The notes beneath the pieces are model-generated. The model searched no databases and was not told the origin of the DNA. It saw only the letters and a program-made list of their open reading frames with translations. Shown in pieces: positions 10,323-51,805 of a DNA stretch of 58,160 nt. The first letter of the stretch is position 1; each line of letters starts with the position of its first letter. The translations under genes and the position numbers were made by a program. Origin of the DNA: a virus (lineage: Duplodnaviria > Caudoviricetes); IMG/VR virus record IMGVR_UViG_3300032898_000006, positions 1 through 58,160 of that record. The stretch is one strand, 5' to 3'.

Positions 10323-11525
10323 ATGGAGCAGATCTCGAAGCGGCTGTTCAATTGGGCGTCGATCCTTGAGCCGAACACCCGCGAGCAGGCGGAGCGGACC
10401 GCGTCGATGCCGTTCATCTGGCCGCACCTCGCACTGATGCCGGACGCCCATCTCGGCAAGGGCGCGACCGTCGGGTCGGTCATCCCGACGCTCGGCGCGA
10501 TCATCCCCGCCGCGGTGGGAGTGGACATCGGGTGCGGAATGTGCGCCGTCCGCACCCAGCTCACCGCCGAGGACGTGCGAAGCCGCGGGAACCTCGCCGC
10601 GCTGAGGGAGTCGATCGAGAAGGCGATCCCGCTGTCGGCCGGCCACTACAACACGGCGCTGCGGGACAGCGAGACCGAGAGGCGCGTCGGCGAGTTGTTC
10701 ATGCTGGACGGCGCCTGGTCCGCGGAGAGCATCGCGCCGAACTGGAGCCTGCAACTCGGCTCGCTCGGATCGGGGAATCACTTCATCGAGATCTCTCTCG
10801 ACGAGCTCGACCGCGTATGGCTGTTCCTGCACAGCGGAAGCCGCGGGGTCGGCAACAAGCTGGCCGTCAAGCACATCAAGATCGCCCTCGAGCAGTGCGA
10901 GCGCCGGTGGATCACCCTTCCCGATCCCGATCTCGCCTACCTGGTCGAGGGCGACCTGCAGTTCTCCGAGTACCTCTGCGATCTCCGCTGGGCGCAGCAT
11001 TTCGCGCTCCTGAACCGCGAGGAGATGATGCACCGGGTCATCGGCTGCGTCGCCGATTGGTCCGGCGAAACCGCGCAGCAGCTGGAGACGGTCAACTGCC
11101 ACCACAACTACACCGAGCAGATGTCCGGCGACCTGCTCGGCCAGTGGAAGCGGCCGAAGAACGCGCACGGCCACGTGTGGCTATCCCGCAAGGGCGCGAT
11201 CGACGCCACCGAGGGCACGCCGGGCCTGATCCCCGGATCCATGGGCACCCGTTCCTACGTGGTCGAGGGGCGCGGCAACCCGCTCTCGCTCAACTCCTCG
11301 CCGCACGGCGCAGGCCGCGAGTACAGCCGCTCAGCGGCGCGTAAGACGTTCACCCGCGAGCAACTCGACGAGGCGATGAGCGGCATCGAGTGGGGCCGCT
11401 CCGACGCCTTCCTCGACGAGATCCCCCGGGCCTACAAAGACATAGATGTTGTGATGGCCGACGCCGCGAGCCTCGTCGAGATCAAGCACACGCTGCGGCA
11501 GATCATCAACGTAAAGGGCGACTAG
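10323..11525 (+). CDS. rtcB: RtcB family RNA 2',3'-cyclic phosphate/3'-P-5'-OH ligase
   Basis: MPDAHLGKG, VGVDIGCGM, LGSGNHFIE, LHSGSRG, CHHNY, SRKGA, IPGSMG, SSPHGAGR, DEIP.AYKDI, INVKG. Confidence 0.97.
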   Translation: MEQISKRLFNWASILEPNTREQAERTASMPFIWPHLALMPDAHLGKGATVGSVIPTLGAIIPAAVGVDIGCGMCAVRTQLTAEDVRSRGNLAALRESIEKAIPLSAGHYNTALRDSETERRVGELFMLDGAWSAESIAPNWSLQLGSLGSGNHFIEISLDELDRVWLFLHSGSRGVGNKLAVKHIKIALEQCERRWITLPDPDLAYLVEGDLQFSEYLCDLRWAQHFALLNREEMMHRVIGCVADWSGETAQQLETVNCHHNYTEQMSGDLLGQWKRPKNAHGHVWLSRKGAIDATEGTPGLIPGSMGTRSYVVEGRGNPLSLNSSPHGAGREYSRSAARKTFTREQLDEAMSGIEWGRSDAFLDEIPRAYKDIDVVMADAASLVEIKHTLRQIINVKGD

Positions 11526-16985: not shown

Positions 16986-17275
16986 CGACGGCAAGGCCAT
17001 CCCCGGAGGAACTCGCCGCAGTCGGCGCCCCGGTTCACTACACGCCCGCCGAGGCGGCGGCCATTCTCGACCCCTCGGGGAAGACGACCGGCTACTGGCT
17101 GCTCAAGCGGGCGCGGAGCGGCCTGTTCCCGTGCACGCGGGTCGGCCGGTCGATCGTGTTCTCCCCGGCGAACCTCGCCGAGATCGCCAGGGGCCTGAAC
17201 AAGCCGGCCGCGCCGCGCACCATCGCGACGGCGGCCTCGAGGTCCAAGCAGCAGAAAAGGCGGAGCGCCGCGTGA
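16982..17275 (+). CDS. excisionase-like HTH protein
   Basis: YTPAEAAAIL...WL.KRARSG.FPCTRVGRSIVFS. Confidence 0.7.
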   Translation: MTTARPSPEELAAVGAPVHYTPAEAAAILDPSGKTTGYWLLKRARSGLFPCTRVGRSIVFSPANLAEIARGLNKPAAPRTIATAASRSKQQKRRSAA

Positions 17276-17403
17276 ACACTCCCACCCTTCCCAACGACGA
17301 CGACACGCTCCCGAACCCCTGGCGACTGGGGCAGCGCCCGGTACGCCGGGCCGAAGACGGGCGATCCCGGTTCCGGACGCGGCTCCCTCGAGAGGCGGCC
17401 GTC

Positions 17404-18234
17404 ATGATCCGCCGGGCCCTCGCCCCGCTGGCCGCGCTCGCCGCCGCCGGCGCGCTGTTCCTCGCCCCGGCCGCGTCCGCGGCGGTCACCCCCGCCGGCG
17501 GCGTCGCCCTCTGGAACCGCCCCGTCTGCGGCGCCGAGTACGTCCCGATCGACATGGGCGCAGGCGACTACTTCAACGTCTACAACGAGCAGGACGGCCG
17601 GTCCTGCGTCTCGGCCGAGGAGCACCACCTCAGCTTCGAGGTCACCTCCCGCGGCGGCTCCGTCAAGGGCTGGCAGTACCCGAACATCAGCAGCGGCTGG
17701 GAGTGGGGCCGCTACACCTGCGCTGACGGGCGATCGGCCTACCCGGCCTCGCCCGGGTCGCAGTGCATGCGCTACCCGGTGCAGGAGAAGGCCGACGGCA
17801 CGCCGCTGACCTCGGTGACGTACTTCCCGCACCTCGCGGCCGGCAACGTCAGCTACGACATCTGGTTCAACCGGACGGACTCCGCGCCGGGCCAGGACGA
17901 CGGCACCGAGGTCATGATCTGGCTCGCGCACCCCGGGGTGAGCATCCCGGCCCGGTCCGTCTGCTGGGACGCCACCATCGGGGGCGTGAAGTACGAGGCG
18001 ATGTGCTGGACGGCGCGCAACGGCGCGACCAGCTGGAACTACGTCGCGTACGTCGCCGTCAGGCAGACCGCGACGCTGCCGCCGACCTGGCTGAACGGCT
18101 TCTTCCGGAACGCCATCAGCCACGGGAAGCTCAGCCCCGACTGGTGGCTGACCGGGATCGATTTCGGGAGCGAGATGAACAGCGGCGGGACCGGGTTCGC
18201 CGTCAAGACCTACATGCTCAAGGACGTGCGATGA
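17404..18234 (+). CDS. secreted GH12 endoglucanase-like glycoside hydrolase (in-frame extension to 17272 possible)
   Basis: Signal peptide; YPNI, NVSYDIWFN, TEVMIWL (nucleophile), WLTGIDFGSE (acid/base). Confidence 0.85.
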   Translation: MIRRALAPLAALAAAGALFLAPAASAAVTPAGGVALWNRPVCGAEYVPIDMGAGDYFNVYNEQDGRSCVSAEEHHLSFEVTSRGGSVKGWQYPNISSGWEWGRYTCADGRSAYPASPGSQCMRYPVQEKADGTPLTSVTYFPHLAAGNVSYDIWFNRTDSAPGQDDGTEVMIWLAHPGVSIPARSVCWDATIGGVKYEAMCWTARNGATSWNYVAYVAVRQTATLPPTWLNGFFRNAISHGKLSPDWWLTGIDFGSEMNSGGTGFAVKTYMLKDVR

Positions 18235-18254
18235 GCGGCGCCGGGGGGAGCAGC

Positions 18255-19883
18255 GTGAACGCTCCGACGCTTCCGAACGACGACACCGTGCCGAACAACT
18301 GGCGGCTAAGGGAGCGCGCGTACACCGGGCCCCATACCGGGCAGCAGCTCGCCGCCATCGACATGCTCGAGGAAATAGCGAGAGCTCAGGCAGTACACGC
18401 CACGACCGAGCTCCCGCATTACGACGGGCCGAGGACGGGGGATCAGCTCGCGCTCCTCGGAACCGGCGAGCGGGGCGCGATCGAGGCAGCGGAGCGGGAG
18501 ATGGCCCCGCGAGGGCGAGGCGCGCATTCCCGGGGTCCGTCGCGACGGAAGCCGTTCCCGTGGGACGACCTCAAGCACCGGGCGCTTGTCGTTGCGGTGA
18601 CCGTGGTCTGCGTCGCCGCGCTCTGGCTGGTGCAGGATTACGCGTGGCCGGGGAAGCCGAGACTGCACGGCACGTTCGCCGAAGTATGGACGTGCACCGG
18701 GCTGCTTTGGCTGGCGCCGCTGCCGGCGTCCGTCTTCAACCTGGTTGGGCTGTTCTGCTACAGGCCCTCGCGGAACCGGCAGAGGGCCGCGGCGATTCCG
18801 CAGGTCGTATGCTGGCGGATCGTCTCCAAGGGGACGAACACGGAGGCGCTGGCCGCGACGATCCGGCGCTGCCGGACGGAGATGAGGGCGGCGCCACTGT
18901 TCCGGTACGTCATCGAGGTCGTCACGGACGTCGAGAACCCGCTGCTGCCGCGCGGGCCGGACGTCGCATACCTGGTCGTCCCCGAGTGGTACCAGACGTC
19001 GAAGGGCTCCCGGTTCAAGGCCCGGGCGCTGCAGTACGCCCTTGAGCACTCGCCGCTGGCCGATGACGCCTGGCTCGTTCATCTTGACGAGGAGTCGCAG
19101 CCGGTGCCGTCCGGAATCCGGGGAATCGCCCGCATGATCGCCGAGGAGGAGGCCACGGGCCGGCTGCGCATCGGCCAGGGCGCGATCGTGTACCACCGGA
19201 AATGGAAGCAGCACCCGTTCCTGACGCTGGCGGACATGCCACGGACGGGGGACGACCTCGGCCGCTTCTACCTCGCCTACCGCAGCGGCGTCACGCTCTT
19301 CGGCATGCACGGGTCGTTCATCGTCGTCCGCAACGACGTCGAGAAGGCCGTCGGGTTCGATTTCGGGCCCGTGGGGTCGATGACCGAGGACGCGTACTGG
19401 GCGCTCTGCGCGATGGAACTGGGTTACCGGTGCCGATGGGTCGACGGCTTCCTCGAGGAGCAGTCGACGCAGGGCATCATGGACTTCCTCAAGCAGCGCC
19501 GCCGCTGGTTCCAGGGCATCGTGAAGGTGTGCCTGCACGCGCCTACGAAGCTCCGCTGGCGGGTGACCTTCGGGGTCAGCACGCTGCTGTGGGCTCTCGC
19601 GCCGCTCGGGATGGCGTACACGCTCGCGCACCTGGTCGTCGGCGGCGGAGTCGGCCCCGCGGTGAAGGTGCTCGCCGACGTGGCCCTGGCGGGCTGCGTC
19701 ACGATCCAGTTTGTAGGGCTGCAGGTGAACCTCGACGAGCACGGGATCATCGAGCGGCCGAGGCGTTTCCTCTGGTACGCCCTGTCCCTGCTGAGCATCC
19801 CGGCCGCCGGGCTGCTGGAGGCGGCCAGCGTCGCGTACGCCATCATCAGGCCGAGCAGCGGCTTCCACGTGGTGGAGAAGTGA
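18255..19883 (+). CDS. membrane GT2 glycosyltransferase, Egghead/BRE-3 beta-1,4-mannosyltransferase-like
   Basis: FKARALQY, WLVHLDEES, GMHGSFIV, GSMTEDAYW, DFLKQRRRWFQG, N- and C-terminal TM helices, FHVVEK end; alternative start 18231. Confidence 0.85.
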   Translation: MNAPTLPNDDTVPNNWRLRERAYTGPHTGQQLAAIDMLEEIARAQAVHATTELPHYDGPRTGDQLALLGTGERGAIEAAEREMAPRGRGAHSRGPSRRKPFPWDDLKHRALVVAVTVVCVAALWLVQDYAWPGKPRLHGTFAEVWTCTGLLWLAPLPASVFNLVGLFCYRPSRNRQRAAAIPQVVCWRIVSKGTNTEALAATIRRCRTEMRAAPLFRYVIEVVTDVENPLLPRGPDVAYLVVPEWYQTSKGSRFKARALQYALEHSPLADDAWLVHLDEESQPVPSGIRGIARMIAEEEATGRLRIGQGAIVYHRKWKQHPFLTLADMPRTGDDLGRFYLAYRSGVTLFGMHGSFIVVRNDVEKAVGFDFGPVGSMTEDAYWALCAMELGYRCRWVDGFLEEQSTQGIMDFLKQRRRWFQGIVKVCLHAPTKLRWRVTFGVSTLLWALAPLGMAYTLAHLVVGGGVGPAVKVLADVALAGCVTIQFVGLQVNLDEHGIIERPRRFLWYALSLLSIPAAGLLEAASVAYAIIRPSSGFHVVEK

Positions 19884-19891
19884 CTCCCGCG

Positions 19892-20815
19892 ATGAGGCTG
19901 TCCCGGCTGTCCGCGGTGGCCGTCACGGTGGCGATCCTCGCGGGCTGCTCTGCCGCCGGGGCGCAGATGCAGTCTCCGGTCCGCGCGCAGGGCTCTTCGC
20001 GGGGCTCGATGCTGTCGGGGGTGTACGAGCCGGACAACCCGGGGTCCTACGGGCAGGTGGCCTCGTTCGCCGCGGCAACAGGGCTGCATCAGGACATCGC
20101 CGTGTACTACAGCGCGTGGGGGAAGCCGTTCGCCTCCGCGTTCGCCGAGCAGTCGCACGCTCAGGGCACGACGGTCCTCGTGCAGCTCAACCCGGCCCAC
20201 GGGGAGGTCGGAGCCGTCGCCGCCGGCAGGCAGGACTCGTACCTGCGGTCGTACGCGGAGCAAATCAAGCGGCTTCGCTTCAATGTCATCGTCAGCTTCG
20301 GTCAGGAGATGAACGGCAACTGGTACCCCTGGGGCCAGGGATACGTGTCGCCGGCGAGCTTCATCAGCGCATGGCGGCGGGTGGTGTCGGTCTTCCGGGC
20401 GGCCGGAGCGTCGAATGTGATCTGGCTCTGGGACGTTAACTCCAACTTCACGGGCGGCTATCCGATCTCGCCGTGGTGGCCGGGAGCGAACTACGTCACA
20501 TGGGTCGGCGTGGACGGCTACTACACGCGCCCGCAGGACACGTTCGCCAGCGTCTTCGGCTCGACCATCACCTCGATCCGGGCGCTGACGAGCAAGCCCG
20601 TCCTGATCGCCGAGACTGCGGTCGGCCCTGACTCCGGCGCGATGCGCGCGGCGCAGGTACGCGGCCTGTTCGCCGGGGTGAAGGCCGATCACCTGCTCGG
20701 CTTGGTCTGGTTCGACCAGAAGCAGGACGACGGGTCGTATCACCAGGACTGGCACATCGAGGATGACCCGGCGGCTCTGGCCGCGTTCAGGGCGGCAGTG
20801 AAGGGGTTCGGGTGA
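19892..20815 (+). CDS. GH26 beta-mannanase-like lipoprotein
   Basis: Lipobox LAGC; GQEMNGNWYPW, WPGANYVTWVGVDGY, KPVLIAET, VWFD. Confidence 0.9.
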   Translation: MRLSRLSAVAVTVAILAGCSAAGAQMQSPVRAQGSSRGSMLSGVYEPDNPGSYGQVASFAAATGLHQDIAVYYSAWGKPFASAFAEQSHAQGTTVLVQLNPAHGEVGAVAAGRQDSYLRSYAEQIKRLRFNVIVSFGQEMNGNWYPWGQGYVSPASFISAWRRVVSVFRAAGASNVIWLWDVNSNFTGGYPISPWWPGANYVTWVGVDGYYTRPQDTFASVFGSTITSIRALTSKPVLIAETAVGPDSGAMRAAQVRGLFAGVKADHLLGLVWFDQKQDDGSYHQDWHIEDDPAALAAFRAAVKGFG

Positions 20816-22841: not shown

Positions 22842-22961
22842 CCCCGGGAACGCAAGGCCGCCCCCTCGCCAGCCGGAACCATCGGCTGGCGAGGGGGCGG
22901 GGAGCGCATCGTCAATTACAGCGGCAAGGGCGAGCATAGCGAGACAGGCGCCGTAATCCGG

Positions 22962-22998: not shown

Positions 22999-23072
22999 CC
23001 TTCCCGGTGCGCCTGGCCGCGCTTACTTCTTATGCAAAGGCGACAGCGCGGCCGACTCTGATCTCAGGAAGG
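22999..23072 (+). ncRNA. Y RNA-like unit 1 (minimal)
   Basis: CCTTCC/GGAAGG terminal stem, shared CCCGGTGCGC..TACTTC..GATCTC motif, inner stem GGCCGCGCT/AGCGCGGCC. Confidence 0.7.
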
Positions 23073-23090
23073 CTTCACGACCTAGCCTCA

Positions 23091-23231
23091 CCCCCGGTGC
23101 GCAGGTATCGGTTTACTTCATTGGGAACTGAGGGTTGCGGGTTCGAATCCCGCCCGCCCGGCTCGCGTCGGGCGGTAGCGCAACTTGGTAGCGCATCAGT
23201 ACGAATCGCCGTACCGTCCCGATCTCGGGGG
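23091..23231 (+). ncRNA. yrlA: YrlA-type Y RNA unit 2, permuted tRNA-Pro(UGG)-like
   Basis: T arm GCGGG-TTCGAAT-CCCGC precedes closed acceptor stem CCGCCCG/CGGGCGG, then D arm TAGCGCAACTTGGTAGCGC; shared terminal stem. Confidence 0.85.
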
Positions 23232-23252
23232 CTTTTACAACTGAATCGACGC

Positions 23253-23379
23253 ACCTCCCGGTGCGCGGGCACGACGGATACTTCTCGCCAGGGCGCAAGC
23301 CCATCAGATCGGCCAGCACGAGATAGCTGGCAGCCACCCCCGGGTGGTCAATCCGGACGCCGACTTGAACTCGGGGGGT
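23253..23379 (+). ncRNA. Y RNA-like unit 3 with three-hairpin domain
   Basis: ACCTCCCG/CGGGGGGT terminal stem, shared motifs, hairpins GGGC-GCAA-GCCC, GCCAGC/GCTGGC, GCCACC/GGTGGT. Confidence 0.7.
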
Positions 23380-23391
23380 CATCGTCTTTGC

Positions 23392-23528
23392 GTGCCCGGT
23401 GCGCAGTTGCGGCGTTCTTCGCCTGTCAAGCGGGTGGTCGCGGGTTCGAATCCCGTCGCCTGGCGGAAGCCTGGTGTAGCTCAGCGGTAGAGCACCTACG
23501 ATTGCCGCGGCGACTTGATCTCGGGCAC
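23392..23528 (+). ncRNA. yrlA: YrlA-type Y RNA unit 4, permuted tRNA-Asp(GUC)-like
   Basis: GTGCCCG/CGGGCAC stem; CTGTCAA loop, T arm GGTTCGAATCC, GGAA-capped acceptor stem, D arm TAGCTCAGCGGTAGAGC. Confidence 0.85.
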
Positions 23529-23569
23529 AACCGACGAAGGCCCCTCCCAGCATGAGAGGGGCTTTTCGC

Positions 23570-25135
23570 ATGTCACGGTTCAACACGACGGGTACGCGGC
23601 CGACAGCGGCCAGCCCGGTAGCCACGGAGGCGGTTCCGTCCGGCGTAACGCACGAGGGGGCGCCCGGCTTCGCCCGCGACAGCAAGAGCGAGCTTTTCCT
23701 GCTAGCGGTCAGCCACATGGGCGACGGGTCGTTCTACGAGTCCCAGCCCGACCGGGATACCCGCTTCCGCTCGCTGGTCCACGGCGTCGCGATGAACGAC
23801 CCGGAGTGGATGGCCCGGTTCGTCCCCTGGCTGCGGAACGGCGCGAACATGCGCACCGCGTCGGTGGTCGCGGCGGCCGAGGCGGCGAAGGCCCTCCTGA
23901 TCGACGAGAAGCCGGGCGGCCGGAAGATCGTCGCGTCGGCGCTGCAGCGCGCCGACGAGCCGGGCGAGCTGCTCGCCTACTGGACTTCCCGTTACGGCCG
24001 GGCGGTTCCCAAGCCGGTCAAGCGGGGCGTCGCCGACGCGGTGGCGCGGCTGTACGACGAGTACGCGCTGCTGAAGTACGACACCGCCTCGCACGGCTAC
24101 CGGTTCGGCGACGTCATCGACCTGTGCCACCCGGACGCGGCCGAGCCGTGGCGCGGCGACCTGTACCGGCACGCCCTCGACCGGCGCCACAACCGGGACA
24201 ACGCGGTGCCGGACTCGCTCGCCATGATCCGGGCCAACGCGATGCTGCGGGCGCGGGGCGCCGAGGACCCGGAGGCACTGCTCGACGCCGGGGCGCTGAA
24301 GGCCGCCGGGATGACATGGGAGGACGCCCTGTCGCTCGCCGGGAGCAAGGCGCCGAAGCGGGAGCTGTGGGCGGCGCTTATCCCGTCGATGGGCTACATG
24401 GCGCTGCTGAGGAACCTGCGGAACTTCGACGACGCCGGGGTGCCGGATGCTGTCGCCGAGCAGGTCGCCGCGCGGCTGTCCGACCCCGCGCAGGTGGCGA
24501 AGTCCCGGCAGTTCCCGTTCCGGTTCCTGTCCGCCTACAAGGCGGTCCCGTCACTCCGGTGGGCGTACCCGCTGGAGAAGGCGCTCGGCCTGTCGCTCGC
24601 GAACGTGCCCGAGATGAAGGGGCGGACGCTGGTCCTCGTCGACCGCTCCGGGTCGATGTTCGATGGCATCTCAGCGAAGTCGGGACTCAACCGCGCCGAC
24701 ACGGCCGCGCTGTTCGGGGCGGCGGTCGCGCTGCGGTGCGAGCACGCCGACCTTGTGCAGTTCGGCTCCTCGAGCGCTCCCGTCCAGTTCCGGGGCGCCG
24801 AGTCGGTGCTGAAGATCATCGGGCGGTTCGGGAACCTCGGCGGCACCTACACGGCCCAGGCGGTGCAGCAGCACTACCGCGACGGCTTCCATTCGCGCGT
24901 CGTCATCATCACCGACGAGCAGACGGCGGCCTACTCGGGTGACCCGCTGAGCCTGATCGCGGGGCGCATCCCCGTTTACACGTGGAACCTCGCCGGCTAC
25001 CAGTACGGGCACGGGCCGTCCGGCGGCGCCAATCGGCACACTTTCGGTGGTTTGACGGACTCGGCTTTCAAGCTCATCCCCCTGCTGGAGGCGGGCCGAA
25101 ATGCCTCCTGGCCTTGGGAAATGTCCGTAGAATAG
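23570..25135 (+). CDS. rsr: Ro60/TROVE domain RNA-binding protein with vWA domain
   Basis: TxEGAPGFARD.KSELFLL, QRADEPGE, LLKYD, MGYMALLRNLRNF, SRQFPFRFLSAY, vWA LVDRSGSM, GGT, IITDEQ. Confidence 0.95.
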   Translation: MSRFNTTGTRPTAASPVATEAVPSGVTHEGAPGFARDSKSELFLLAVSHMGDGSFYESQPDRDTRFRSLVHGVAMNDPEWMARFVPWLRNGANMRTASVVAAAEAAKALLIDEKPGGRKIVASALQRADEPGELLAYWTSRYGRAVPKPVKRGVADAVARLYDEYALLKYDTASHGYRFGDVIDLCHPDAAEPWRGDLYRHALDRRHNRDNAVPDSLAMIRANAMLRARGAEDPEALLDAGALKAAGMTWEDALSLAGSKAPKRELWAALIPSMGYMALLRNLRNFDDAGVPDAVAEQVAARLSDPAQVAKSRQFPFRFLSAYKAVPSLRWAYPLEKALGLSLANVPEMKGRTLVLVDRSGSMFDGISAKSGLNRADTAALFGAAVALRCEHADLVQFGSSSAPVQFRGAESVLKIIGRFGNLGGTYTAQAVQQHYRDGFHSRVVIITDEQTAAYSGDPLSLIAGRIPVYTWNLAGYQYGHGPSGGANRHTFGGLTDSAFKLIPLLEAGRNASWPWEMSVE

Positions 25136-25198: not shown

Positions 25199-25747
25199 AT
25201 GGGCAAGCGTACAAGTCCCTACCCTGAACGGATCGCATGGACTTGGGATCGCCTGATCGAACAGGTCCGCGCCATCTGCGTCGTAGATGAAGTATCCGGG
25301 TGCTGGATTTGGCCGCGATGGAGCAACGAACGCGGTTACGGGCGCCTTCAGGTCGACGGCAAAGTGTGGTACGTGCACCGGGCAGTCCTGCGAGCGAAGA
25401 CCGGGATCGTCCGATCCCACGGGCGGCACTCGTGCGACAACCCGCCGTGCACCAACCCCGATCACCTGAGTTGGGGCACCCAGGGGGACAATATGGCGGA
25501 CGCCGTAGATCGCGGTCGCGTCCGACACGGAGACGCACACTACAGCCGCGCCAACCCGTCGCTCGTGCTACGTGGCAGTGACAATGGATCGGCGAAACTG
25601 ACGGCCATCCAAGTGGAGGCCATCCGCGCCCGGTACGCTGCCGGCGCCATCTCGCAGCGACTACTCGGCGAGGAGTACGGCGTTTGCCAGCGGCAGATCA
25701 GCCGCATAGTTCGCGGCGAGCGCTGGGCACCCACTTCGGCGACTTGA
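25199..25747 (+). CDS. HNH homing endonuclease
   Basis: CWIW..GYG..VHR..RHSCDNPPCTNPDHLSWGTQGDNMAD; C-terminal AKLT HTH. Confidence 0.92.
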   Translation: MGKRTSPYPERIAWTWDRLIEQVRAICVVDEVSGCWIWPRWSNERGYGRLQVDGKVWYVHRAVLRAKTGIVRSHGRHSCDNPPCTNPDHLSWGTQGDNMADAVDRGRVRHGDAHYSRANPSLVLRGSDNGSAKLTAIQVEAIRARYAAGAISQRLLGEEYGVCQRQISRIVRGERWAPTSAT

Positions 25748-51311: not shown

Positions 51312-51805
51312 GCTTGCACCACCTCGTCGATGTCGACGCTTATGCGCTGGACGTACCAGAGCATCCGGGGCCCTGCCACGCTCCGCTCGGGCGGGTAGTC
51401 GCTGGCGAAGGACTCGCCGATCTTCTGGATCTGCGTGTCGTCGTCGTTGACCGCGTTAGGCCCCATCGGGACGCCGGCAGCCGAGATGAACAGCGGCATC
51501 GTCGTCGTCATAAAGCACCGGAGGATGGCGTCGGTGATCTTCGGGAACGGCTCGTTCTGCATGGCCTTGTCCGGGGTGGACATGTACGCCACGTAGACGT
51601 CCATGGCCCACGTGAACTTCATGAAACCCTGGCCGCGGGGGGCGGTCTGCCTGGCGGCCTTGAGGTGCCCGCCCCACACGTAGGCGCGGGGGGAGGAGAT
51701 CTTCTCCGTGACCGGCGGGGTGATCCACGCCGTCAGCGGCCCGGTGCCGGGCAGCGGGAGACCGTCGAGCAGGCCCTTCACGTACGCCTGGCAGCTGTCG
51801 AGCAC
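51308..51805 (-). CDS. putative tail terminator
   Basis: Synteny in head-tail module. Confidence 0.55.
   Translation of the reverse strand: MLDSCQAYVKGLLDGLPLPGTGPLTAWITPPVTEKISSPRAYVWGGHLKAARQTAPRGQGFMKFTWAMDVYVAYMSTPDKAMQNEPFPKITDAILRCFMTTTMPLFISAAGVPMGPNAVNDDDTQIQKIGESFASDYPPERSVAGPRMLWYVQRISVDIDEVVQA

Follow-up and report, generated by a model that had tools for sequence, protein, structure and literature searches.

Units 2 and 4 of a Y RNA array in a 58,160-bp virus record (IMGVR_UViG_3300032898_000006, Caudoviricetes, estimated completeness 54%; the whole record is called the window here) each contain all parts of a transfer RNA (tRNA) cloverleaf in circularly permuted order, including a seven-letter anticodon loop on a five-pair stem. 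The array precedes a gene for a Ro60 ortholog (rsr), and both units belong to the YrlA class of Y RNAs. Their resemblance to an anticodon loop is real but isoacceptor identity is kept only in some lineages (Pro and Glu), because among relatives the frame of the loop is nearly invariant and the rule that links positions 36 and 37 is observed, while the triplet itself changes fast. We are highly confident of the anatomy and family of the two units. A broader reading, in which the module is a full tRNA mimic tethered to Ro60, anticodon arm included, with its loop kept acceptable to tRNA-handling proteins, is in our view probably correct.

Both loops, ATTGGGA in unit 2 and CTGTCAA in unit 4, and their TGG and GTC triplets lie where the original prediction had placed them (Table 1), and every element that it had listed for unit 2 was present on reading of the sequence, the C1-G72 pair included. 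Its view of the two units as whole tRNAs in permuted order was borne out when a script re-joined the module pieces by their coordinates and the products were given to ARAGORN, which called tRNA-Pro(tgg) of 74 nucleotides (nt) for unit 2 and tRNA-Asp(gtc) of 72 nt for unit 4. The permuted order of parts is shared with permuted pre-tRNA genes of the algal type. In unit 2 a TACTTC motif precedes the seven loop letters and the Ro60 handle is inserted between tRNA positions 31 and 32; in unit 4 the handle is inserted between positions 28 and 29. Unit 4 can be described as a T arm, acceptor and D arm core like that of unit 2 plus an extra hairpin before the variable loop, and it has a T-T mismatch in the acceptor stem and a C at position 73. 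Its anticodon stem consists of the pairs 23495-23434, 23496-23433, 23420-23432, 23421-23431 and 23422-23430. The original prediction had drawn this stem as local (23418-23422/23430-23434); three of the local pairs stood, but the other two come from the strand that follows the D arm, and on the covariation described below the purely local 5-bp stem was replaced by a composite one. For unit 2, a local hairpin with an 8-nt loop suggested by single-sequence folding was rejected, as relatives gave it no support.

Membership of the YrlA family was assigned from the T arm, the closed acceptor-like stem and the D arm, which were found in both units in YrlA order and with tRNA elbow nucleotides by Rfam alignment and by a parsing script. 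The Rfam YrlA model (RF02553) matched unit 2 at 23129-23198 (44.2 bits, E 2.1e-08) and unit 4 at 23433-23496 (33.5 bits, E 2.5e-05), the alignments spanning this core only (model positions 23-85) and the flanks of the model remaining unmatched.

Relatives of the Ro60 protein numbered 110 in IMG/VR and 294 in species-representative genomes, and from each set the 80 best were retrieved together with 2.5 kb of upstream sequence. Those from genomes are all Actinomycetota, and some may be prophages. Modules were collected with a pattern script of our own that required a TACTTC-like motif, a T arm and a downstream D arm and thus covers loci of that design. Upstream of rsr, 69 of the 80 phage loci and 71 of the 80 actinobacterial loci had this layout, giving 176 modules when those of Gordonia phage VanLee, Mycobacterium phage Myrna and the window are taken in. 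Among these 126 were class II, with a local hairpin before the variable loop as in unit 4, 38 were class I, with a long-range stem as in unit 2, and 12 were unclassified. Some loci also carry half modules beside rsr, in which an anticodon-like hairpin and a T arm occur without acceptor stem or D arm (L005 ~2392, L009 ~2387, L019 ~2397, L013 ~2239 and L031 ~2208); these are perhaps comparable to M. smegmatis YrlB, which is reported to contain a T arm.

Covariation of the anticodon stem was analyzed in 120 non-redundant class II modules by comparing the number of Watson-Crick pairs with the best of 2000 shuffles. Pairs 27:43 and 28:42, whose 5' strand follows the D arm, were Watson-Crick in 114 (best shuffle 94) and 116 modules (67), respectively, and pairs 29:41, 30:40 and 31:39, whose 5' strand is the local one before the loop, in 117 (98), 117 (62) and 118 modules (64). 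Three or four pair types occurred at every position, and switches among C-G, G-C, T-A and A-T recur across unrelated lineages. Competing pairings were poor (local 27:43 in 14, local 28:42 in 54 and distal 29:41 in 12 of the 120), and fewer pairs formed when the distal strand was shifted one letter to either side. The class II anticodon stem is an ordinary one of five pairs, except that its 5' strand is broken by the exit of the Ro60 handle between positions 28 and 29. Class I has the break between positions 31 and 32, and covariation is seen at its five long-range pairs, with five distinct perfect stems among the close relatives of unit 2.

Closer examination of the class II loops (n=119) revealed T33 in 116, A38 in 114, C32 in 97 and a purine at position 37 in 114, while positions 34-36 hold only 0.15-0.47 bit. 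The profile is the same as that of 53 real Streptomyces tRNAs, the distinct set that remained after parsing the ARAGORN calls made in regions of a single Streptomyces genome that surround 72 Rfam tRNA matches. All seven letters were identical to a real tRNA loop in 72 of the 119 modules, the commonest loops being CTGTTAA (19) and CTGCTAA (14). Position 37 follows position 36 as it does in real tRNAs: G36 was accompanied by G37 in 27 of 29 modules (12/12 in the reference tRNAs) and any other letter at 36 in only 1 of 90 (0/41), a coupling that spans at least 11 different triplets ending in G.

Rates of change were taken from 114 pairs of modules whose bodies differ by no more than 10%. Positions 32, 33 and 38 changed least (0.006 differences per site), followed by the anticodon stem (0.039), the T arm (0.059), the D arm (0.066), the variable loop (0.086), position 37 (0.16), the triplet 34-36 (0.40) and the four letters after position 28, which form the 3' linker (0.45). 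The rate at positions 32, 33 and 38 is therefore lower than that of stems and arms by a factor of about 7 to 15, which places the loop frame among the best-conserved elements of the RNA. The triplet varies roughly as freely as the unconstrained linker, yet it stays within the states found in real anticodon loops. As to conservation of the anticodon across homologs, for which the original prediction had called, the frame at 32, 33 and 38 proved frozen but positions 34-36 vary almost freely. A group of Dactylosporangium loci (L121, L126, L132, L138, L140 and L160) share the same anticodon stem letters and carry the triplets GTT, CGG, ATG, GTT, ACT and GCG, respectively, position 37 tracking position 36 in every case.

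The tRNA identity of the modules was scored on the D region, the variable loop with the T arm, and the acceptor against the reference tRNAs, leaving out the anticodon arm. Pro was the top isotype for unit 2 (identity of the D region with that of a real Streptomyces tRNA-Pro, 0.90; total score 2.39), which combines C1-G72, a Pro-type D arm and an NGG anticodon with G37. The description of C1-G72 as typical of tRNA-Pro agrees with the reference set, where the pair occurs only in three Pro tRNAs and one odd Val call. Among the modules it accompanies NGG loops in 14 of 22 and other loops in 26 of 128 (Fisher p 8e-05, uncorrected for kinship). Position 73 of unit 2 is G, as against A in real tRNA-Pro genes. 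The loop of unit 2 recurs together with a near-identical acceptor stem in an actinobacterial locus (L084). In unit 4 the seven-letter loop and the T stem are identical to those of a real tRNA-Asp. Its variable loop and T arm, however, score 0.86 with Asp in a tie with Gly, Thr and His, and its D region is closest to Val; Asp ranked 14th to 16th for the three GTC modules, and an Asp-like body for the whole of unit 4 was dropped as unsupported. The proposal that the two units derive from two different tRNAs thus stands for unit 2, which is Pro-like beyond its loop, but for unit 4 it extends to the loop and T arm only, the D arm and acceptor being generic.

An isotype could be read for 149 modules, and in 22 of them the cognate one ranked first, compared with a mean of 10.0 and a maximum of 21 in 1000 label shuffles. 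The excess was driven by Pro (11/22) and Glu (4/9), whereas Ser never ranked first. By these sequence comparisons, certain lineages (Pro, Glu) have a real tRNA identity, which the large generic lineage that holds unit 4 lacks. The loops are accordingly isoacceptor-specific, as the original prediction proposed, in the Pro and Glu lineages, but not around unit 4, whose nearest relatives combine the same body with GTT or other triplets. The Glu-type lineage (L027 2208, L050 2370, L084 2356, L133 2208, L156 2006 and others) is characterized by a tRNA-Glu-type D arm, a 4-nt variable loop and mostly a CTC or TTC triplet; three members have other triplets on the Glu-type body. Pro-like and Glu-like bodies with matching loops point to YrlA RNAs having been born from tRNA genes more than once.

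The tRNA finders call for some caution. In native order, neither ARAGORN nor the Rfam tRNA model called a tRNA in 23091-23528, while 49 of 151 modules from the wider set sit within an ARAGORN call. After re-permutation ARAGORN made a call in 149 of 151 modules, in 148 of which the anticodon corresponded to loop letters 3-5. The program is permissive, however, and still called 120-128 of the 151 re-permuted modules after the 17 letters of the arm had been shuffled. The call therefore rests mainly on the T arm, D arm and acceptor, and it was dropped as evidence for the anticodon arm. That evidence comes instead from the arm itself: a stem with five of five pairs stands at the fixed place in 134 of 151 modules, whereas in background sequence only 112 of 596,481 17-mers combine five pairs with an N-T-NNN-R-A loop.

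Sequences from other samples match the units. In a second sample, a DNA contig matches 23062-23600 without any difference. A soil RNA library holds a contig of 221 nt that covers 23383-23529 and shows 20 differences; none is listed in the loop, and two together turn a C-G pair of the acceptor hairpin into G-C, a compensatory change. The library may contain DNA, and as the runs consist of contigs they are uninformative on RNA ends, joints, strand and expression level; runs with a small share of matches are likewise uninformative on habitat. The stretch 23421-23457 of unit 4 attracts contigs of real tRNA genes with a GTC anticodon in four soil metagenome runs. The high depth at 23412-23477 was consequently discarded as a signal of this RNA, as it comes from the real tRNA genes of other organisms.

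In the mechanism that we propose, the basal stem with its GGTGCGC would be the handle that binds the phage Ro60 (Rsr), inserted in the 5' strand of the anticodon stem, and the distal module would be a complete permuted tRNA with closed acceptor, D arm, 5-bp stem, 7-nt loop, short variable loop and T arm. Held on Ro60, the module may act as a full tRNA look-alike that engages tRNA-handling enzymes, including readers of the anticodon loop such as loop-modifying enzymes or nucleases. The exact triplet would then matter less than a legal anticodon-loop shape, and selection would keep the loop in a form that tRNA-handling proteins accept. We regard this mode of action, which we infer, as about evenly balanced between right and wrong.

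Several observations weigh against this interpretation. Both YrlA matches fall below the gathering score of 69, and at gathering level Rfam matched no family in the whole window; we take the low score to reflect the limits of the model, which rests mostly on other phyla, and not to exclude the units from the family. Single-sequence folds were no better than shuffles (z -1.0 to -1.9), and constraining unit 4 to the cloverleaf gave a fold 7.3 kcal/mol worse than its minimum free energy fold, the corresponding figure for unit 2 being 0.7 kcal/mol; thermodynamic folding does not decide for or against the cloverleaf. The triplet changes nearly as fast as the 3' linker, which argues against any role that needs a fixed anticodon. 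Class I loops are weakly conserved, with exactly 7 nt between TACTTC and position 39 in 9 of 37 non-redundant modules and no more than 5 nt in 20 of 37, so that the loop of unit 2 could be a decaying remnant; one relative with the long-range stem of unit 2 retains just four of its seven loop letters. The modules were gathered by our own pattern rules, which leaves loci of other design uncounted, and the shuffles disregard kinship among the sequences. For this phage we infer RNA ends, processing, modification and Ro60 binding alike.

The same loop statistics invite a more specific explanation, namely that the modules are decoys or competitive inhibitors of anticodon nucleases, which soak up or are cut by tRNA-cleaving toxins or defence nucleases while RtcB reseals the tRNAs or the Y RNA. 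The loops obey the rules of real anticodon loops, in most cases matching one outright, and a fast triplet in a frozen frame is the pattern expected from repeated retargeting; neutral drift, however, explains the triplet rate equally well, given its closeness to that of the linker. No triplet is shared between the modules of any of 31 two-module loci, a result that by a rough estimate is not clearly below chance. The phage does encode an RtcB, but at a distance of 12 kb from the array. A competitive inhibitor of an anticodon nuclease has been proposed for the tRNA-like domain of Salmonella YrlA (Hughes et al. 2020, PMC7790460), although the same article reports that RNA as uncut by the damage-induced nuclease. 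We consider a decoy role unlikely, if worth keeping in mind. The wider proposal that actinobacterial and actinophage YrlA RNAs are complete two-strand tRNAs on Ro60 whose triplet is quickly retargeted, and which serve together with RtcB as isoacceptor-specific baits or sensors for anticodon-directed nucleases, is similarly tentative. Were it true, a phage with at least two modules of different identity would cover several tRNA targets together.

A less probable view is that the loops are an evolutionary remnant of the parent tRNA genes, in line with the published model of a dimeric-tRNA origin (cited in 10.1101/312249), with no present role and only the T/D elbow being of importance. The many short class I loops and the nearly free triplet fit this view, as does the report that Salmonella YrlA works without the loop (10.1101/312249). 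In class II, on the other hand, the stem shows compensatory turnover at all five pairs, and yet T33 and A38 are almost universal, positions 32, 33 and 38 are the slowest of all, and the coupling of 36 and 37 persists through the different G-ending triplets. The frozen frame, the stem compensation and the 36-37 rule indicate selection rather than decay.

Far less credible is that the units are permuted pre-tRNAs, from which the handle is excised, RtcB ligates position 28 with 29 or 31 with 32, and the acceptor is opened through RNase P and the addition of CCA to give a working tRNA-Pro and tRNA-Asp. RtcB is present in the phage, and the order of parts is that of the permuted tRNA genes of some algae, as noted by Wang et al. 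(10.1101/312249), who also state that a bacterial endonuclease for such a junction is not known. Many relatives, however, carry triplets, such as ACT, ATT and ATG, that are not known at position 34 of bacterial tRNAs, and Ser triplets occur on bodies without a long variable arm, which makes maturation into working tRNAs unlikely. The acceptor mismatch and C73 of unit 4 likewise do not favour it, and both halves of M. smegmatis YrlA are reported to remain bound to Rsr (PMC4201824). Chance resemblance of seven-letter strings to anticodon loops, which the permissiveness of ARAGORN might have suggested since a tRNA call alone proves little, is effectively refuted by the loop statistics, the background count and the covariation of the stem.

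On the basis of the four-unit array, the TROVE open reading frame (ORF) and the YrlA matches, the region 22999-25135 consists of four Y RNAs, including two of the YrlA class, followed by a phage rsr gene. Each unit comprises a C-rich strand, GGTGCGC, a TACTTC-like motif about 20 nt further on and a 3' G-rich strand that pairs with the start, while a script run over the four units found a T arm in units 2 and 4 only. GGTGCGC stands in all four units at the site of the published Ro60-binding motif GNCGAAN0-1G, to which the match is inexact; many relatives have GCGAAGG there. The array stops 42 nt short of the rsr start codon on the same strand. The Rsr protein is 45-73% identical to the 160 fetched relatives, and named phages label it Ro-like RNA binding protein. 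The RtcB gene lies upstream of the array, also on the same strand, and a tape measure protein is encoded in the record as well. A promoter scan of the region found none, and the terminator scan gave just two hits, both pieces of Y RNA stems; this simple scan did not report the hairpin that follows unit 4 (Table 1).

Table 1. Coordinates of the Y RNA units, their tRNA-like modules and associated genes in the window
Feature	Position	Strand	Remarks
RtcB RNA ligase gene	10323-11525	+	Pfam RtcB PF01139, 359.7 bits, E 4.1e-109; PHROG tRNA splicing ligase, E 4.5e-136
Y RNA unit 1	22999-23072	+	Basal stem, GGTGCGC, TACTTC-like motif; tRNA-like module absent (reading, fold, T-arm script)
Y RNA unit 2, YrlA class	23091-23231	+	Basal stem 23091-23097/23226-23231; Ro60-type motif 23096-23105
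Unit 2 tRNA-like module, permuted tRNA-Pro look-alike	23120-23200	+	ARAGORN after re-permutation; body closest to tRNA-Pro; covarying long-range 5-bp stem
Unit 2 loop 32-38, ATTGGGA	23120-23126	+	TGG at 23122-23124
Unit 2 strand 39-43	23127-23131	+	Followed by 5-nt variable loop
Unit 2 T arm	23137-23153	+	
Unit 2 acceptor	23154-23175	+	7 bp, 8-nt closing loop; 3' strand 23154-23160, 5' strand 23169-23175
Unit 2 D arm	23178-23194	+	Two linking letters before, one letter after
Unit 2 strand 27-31	23196-23200	+	Perfect pairing with 23127-23131
Y RNA unit 3	23253-23379	+	Basal stem, GGTGCGC, TACTTC-like motif; tRNA-like module absent (reading, fold, T-arm script)
Y RNA unit 4, YrlA class	23392-23528	+	Basal stem 23392-23399/23520-23528; Rfam YrlA below threshold, fold
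Unit 4 tRNA-like module	23420-23496	+	ARAGORN tRNA-Asp(gtc) after re-permutation; composite stem covariation
Unit 4 strand 29-31	23420-23422	+	
Unit 4 loop, CTGTCAA	23423-23429	+	GTC at 23425-23427
Unit 4 strand 39-43	23430-23434	+	Followed by variable loop
Unit 4 T arm	23440-23456	+	
Unit 4 acceptor	23457-23476	+	4-nt closing loop
Unit 4 D arm	23479-23493	+	Followed by position 26
Unit 4 strand 27-28	23495-23496	+	
G+C-rich hairpin, then T run	23540-23565	+	Between unit 4 and rsr start codon; sequence reading
rsr, Ro60 ortholog, TROVE domain	23570-25135	+	Pfam TROVE PF05731, E 1.3e-19

Other features of the window include an HNH endonuclease gene directly 3' of rsr (25199-25747) and a perfect, long G+C-rich palindromic hairpin between the upstream gene and the Y RNA array (22856-22906), which attracts spurious weak Rfam matches on both strands and looks like a two-way terminator. 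Three adjacent ORFs (17131-20815) encode glycosyl hydrolase 12, glycosyltransferase 2 and glycosyl hydrolase 26 domains, an unusual block in a phage that may target the host envelope or exopolysaccharide. ARAGORN also called a tRNA-Leu(gag) at 51629-51716, where the Rfam tRNA model was silent at gathering level and up to an E of 1; this is probably a false call.

Y RNA modules account for several of the features that public phage records list as tRNA genes next to Ro genes. The annotated tRNA-Arg(tct) of VanLee (L002 2477-2548) is the front part of a YrlA-type module and is followed by a closed acceptor and a D arm. Similarly, the tRNA-Ser(gct) of Streptomyces phage LuckySocke, only 74 nt long (L204 1274-1347), and gene 166 of Myrna, a tRNA-Asp (L001 2477-2548), coincide with the front part of such a module, a closed acceptor and a D arm again following. 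To judge from these arrangements, none of the three annotated features is an ordinary tRNA gene. Should a true anticodon arm be presented by the majority of actinobacterial and actinophage YrlA RNAs, their partners would likely include proteins that read the anticodon loop and not elbow binders only, such as modification enzymes, anticodon nucleases and possibly synthetases. Culturable pairs suited to testing this are LuckySocke on S. lividans and the Gordonia phage VanLee. The drawing of the YrlA structure would be revised as well: the hairpin now called the V arm would belong to the anticodon arm, into whose stem the Ro60 handle is inserted.

According to the published accounts of known YrlA RNAs (PMC4201824, 10.1101/312249, PMC7790460, PMC10159003, PMC12135203 and PMC9569102), these RNAs adjoin rsr in more than 250 bacteria and 22 phages, and their T arm, D arm and acceptor mimic tRNA. 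Their likeness to permuted tRNAs and an origin from a dimeric tRNA transcript have already been discussed (10.1101/312249). In the available portions of this literature we found no text on an anticodon-loop mimic, a composite stem or isoacceptor-like YrlA lineages, although the supplementary drawings of Chen et al. 2014 (Fig. S1) may already show such hairpins. The closest structural comparison is with YrlA of Salmonella Typhimurium (6CU1; Chen et al. 2014, Wang et al. 2018), which resembles the modules described here in its place beside rsr, the order of T arm, closed acceptor and D arm, the conserved elbow nucleotides, the stem formed by its 5' and 3' ends that leads to the Ro60 site, and its link to RtcB; its conserved pyrimidine-U-A-pyrimidine (YUAY) near the junction is part of the TACTTC motif here. 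This RNA folds like a tRNA, but its anticodon loop is stated to be absent (Wang et al. 2018, 10.1101/312249), in keeping with the general description of YrlA given in the original prediction. The modules of the window, in contrast, have a 7-nt loop, with a full two-strand 5-bp stem in unit 4, and an acceptor stem of 7 bp compared with 6 in Salmonella.

YrlA of M. smegmatis (Chen et al. 2014, PMC4201824), which is reported to be cut by RNase P and to gain a CCA in vivo, is likewise actinobacterial, has a 7-bp acceptor and lies upstream of rsr with a second Y RNA; its sizes, compared by the text of the paper only, fit the layout of unit 4. There the hairpin 5' of the T arm is called the V arm and YUAY starts the V loop, whereas by the covariation observed here that hairpin is read as the anticodon loop together with the lower three pairs of its arm. 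The permuted tRNA genes of algae (Cyanidioschyzon merolae; Soma et al. 2007, as cited in 10.1101/312249) share with our modules the 3' part coming first, the closed acceptor and the ends that meet in the anticodon arm. In the algae a splicing endonuclease acts at a bulge-helix-bulge to yield working tRNAs, while the junction here carries a predicted Ro60-binding handle, and no such processing is known in bacteria. Finally, b7a-tRNA (Burroughs and Aravind 2016, as cited in 10.1101/312249) is also a tRNA-like RNA encoded in RtcB repair loci, where it is sometimes swapped with YrlA; unlike the modules of the window, it is described as similar to an authentic, unpermuted tRNA and has a Band-7 protein as its partner.

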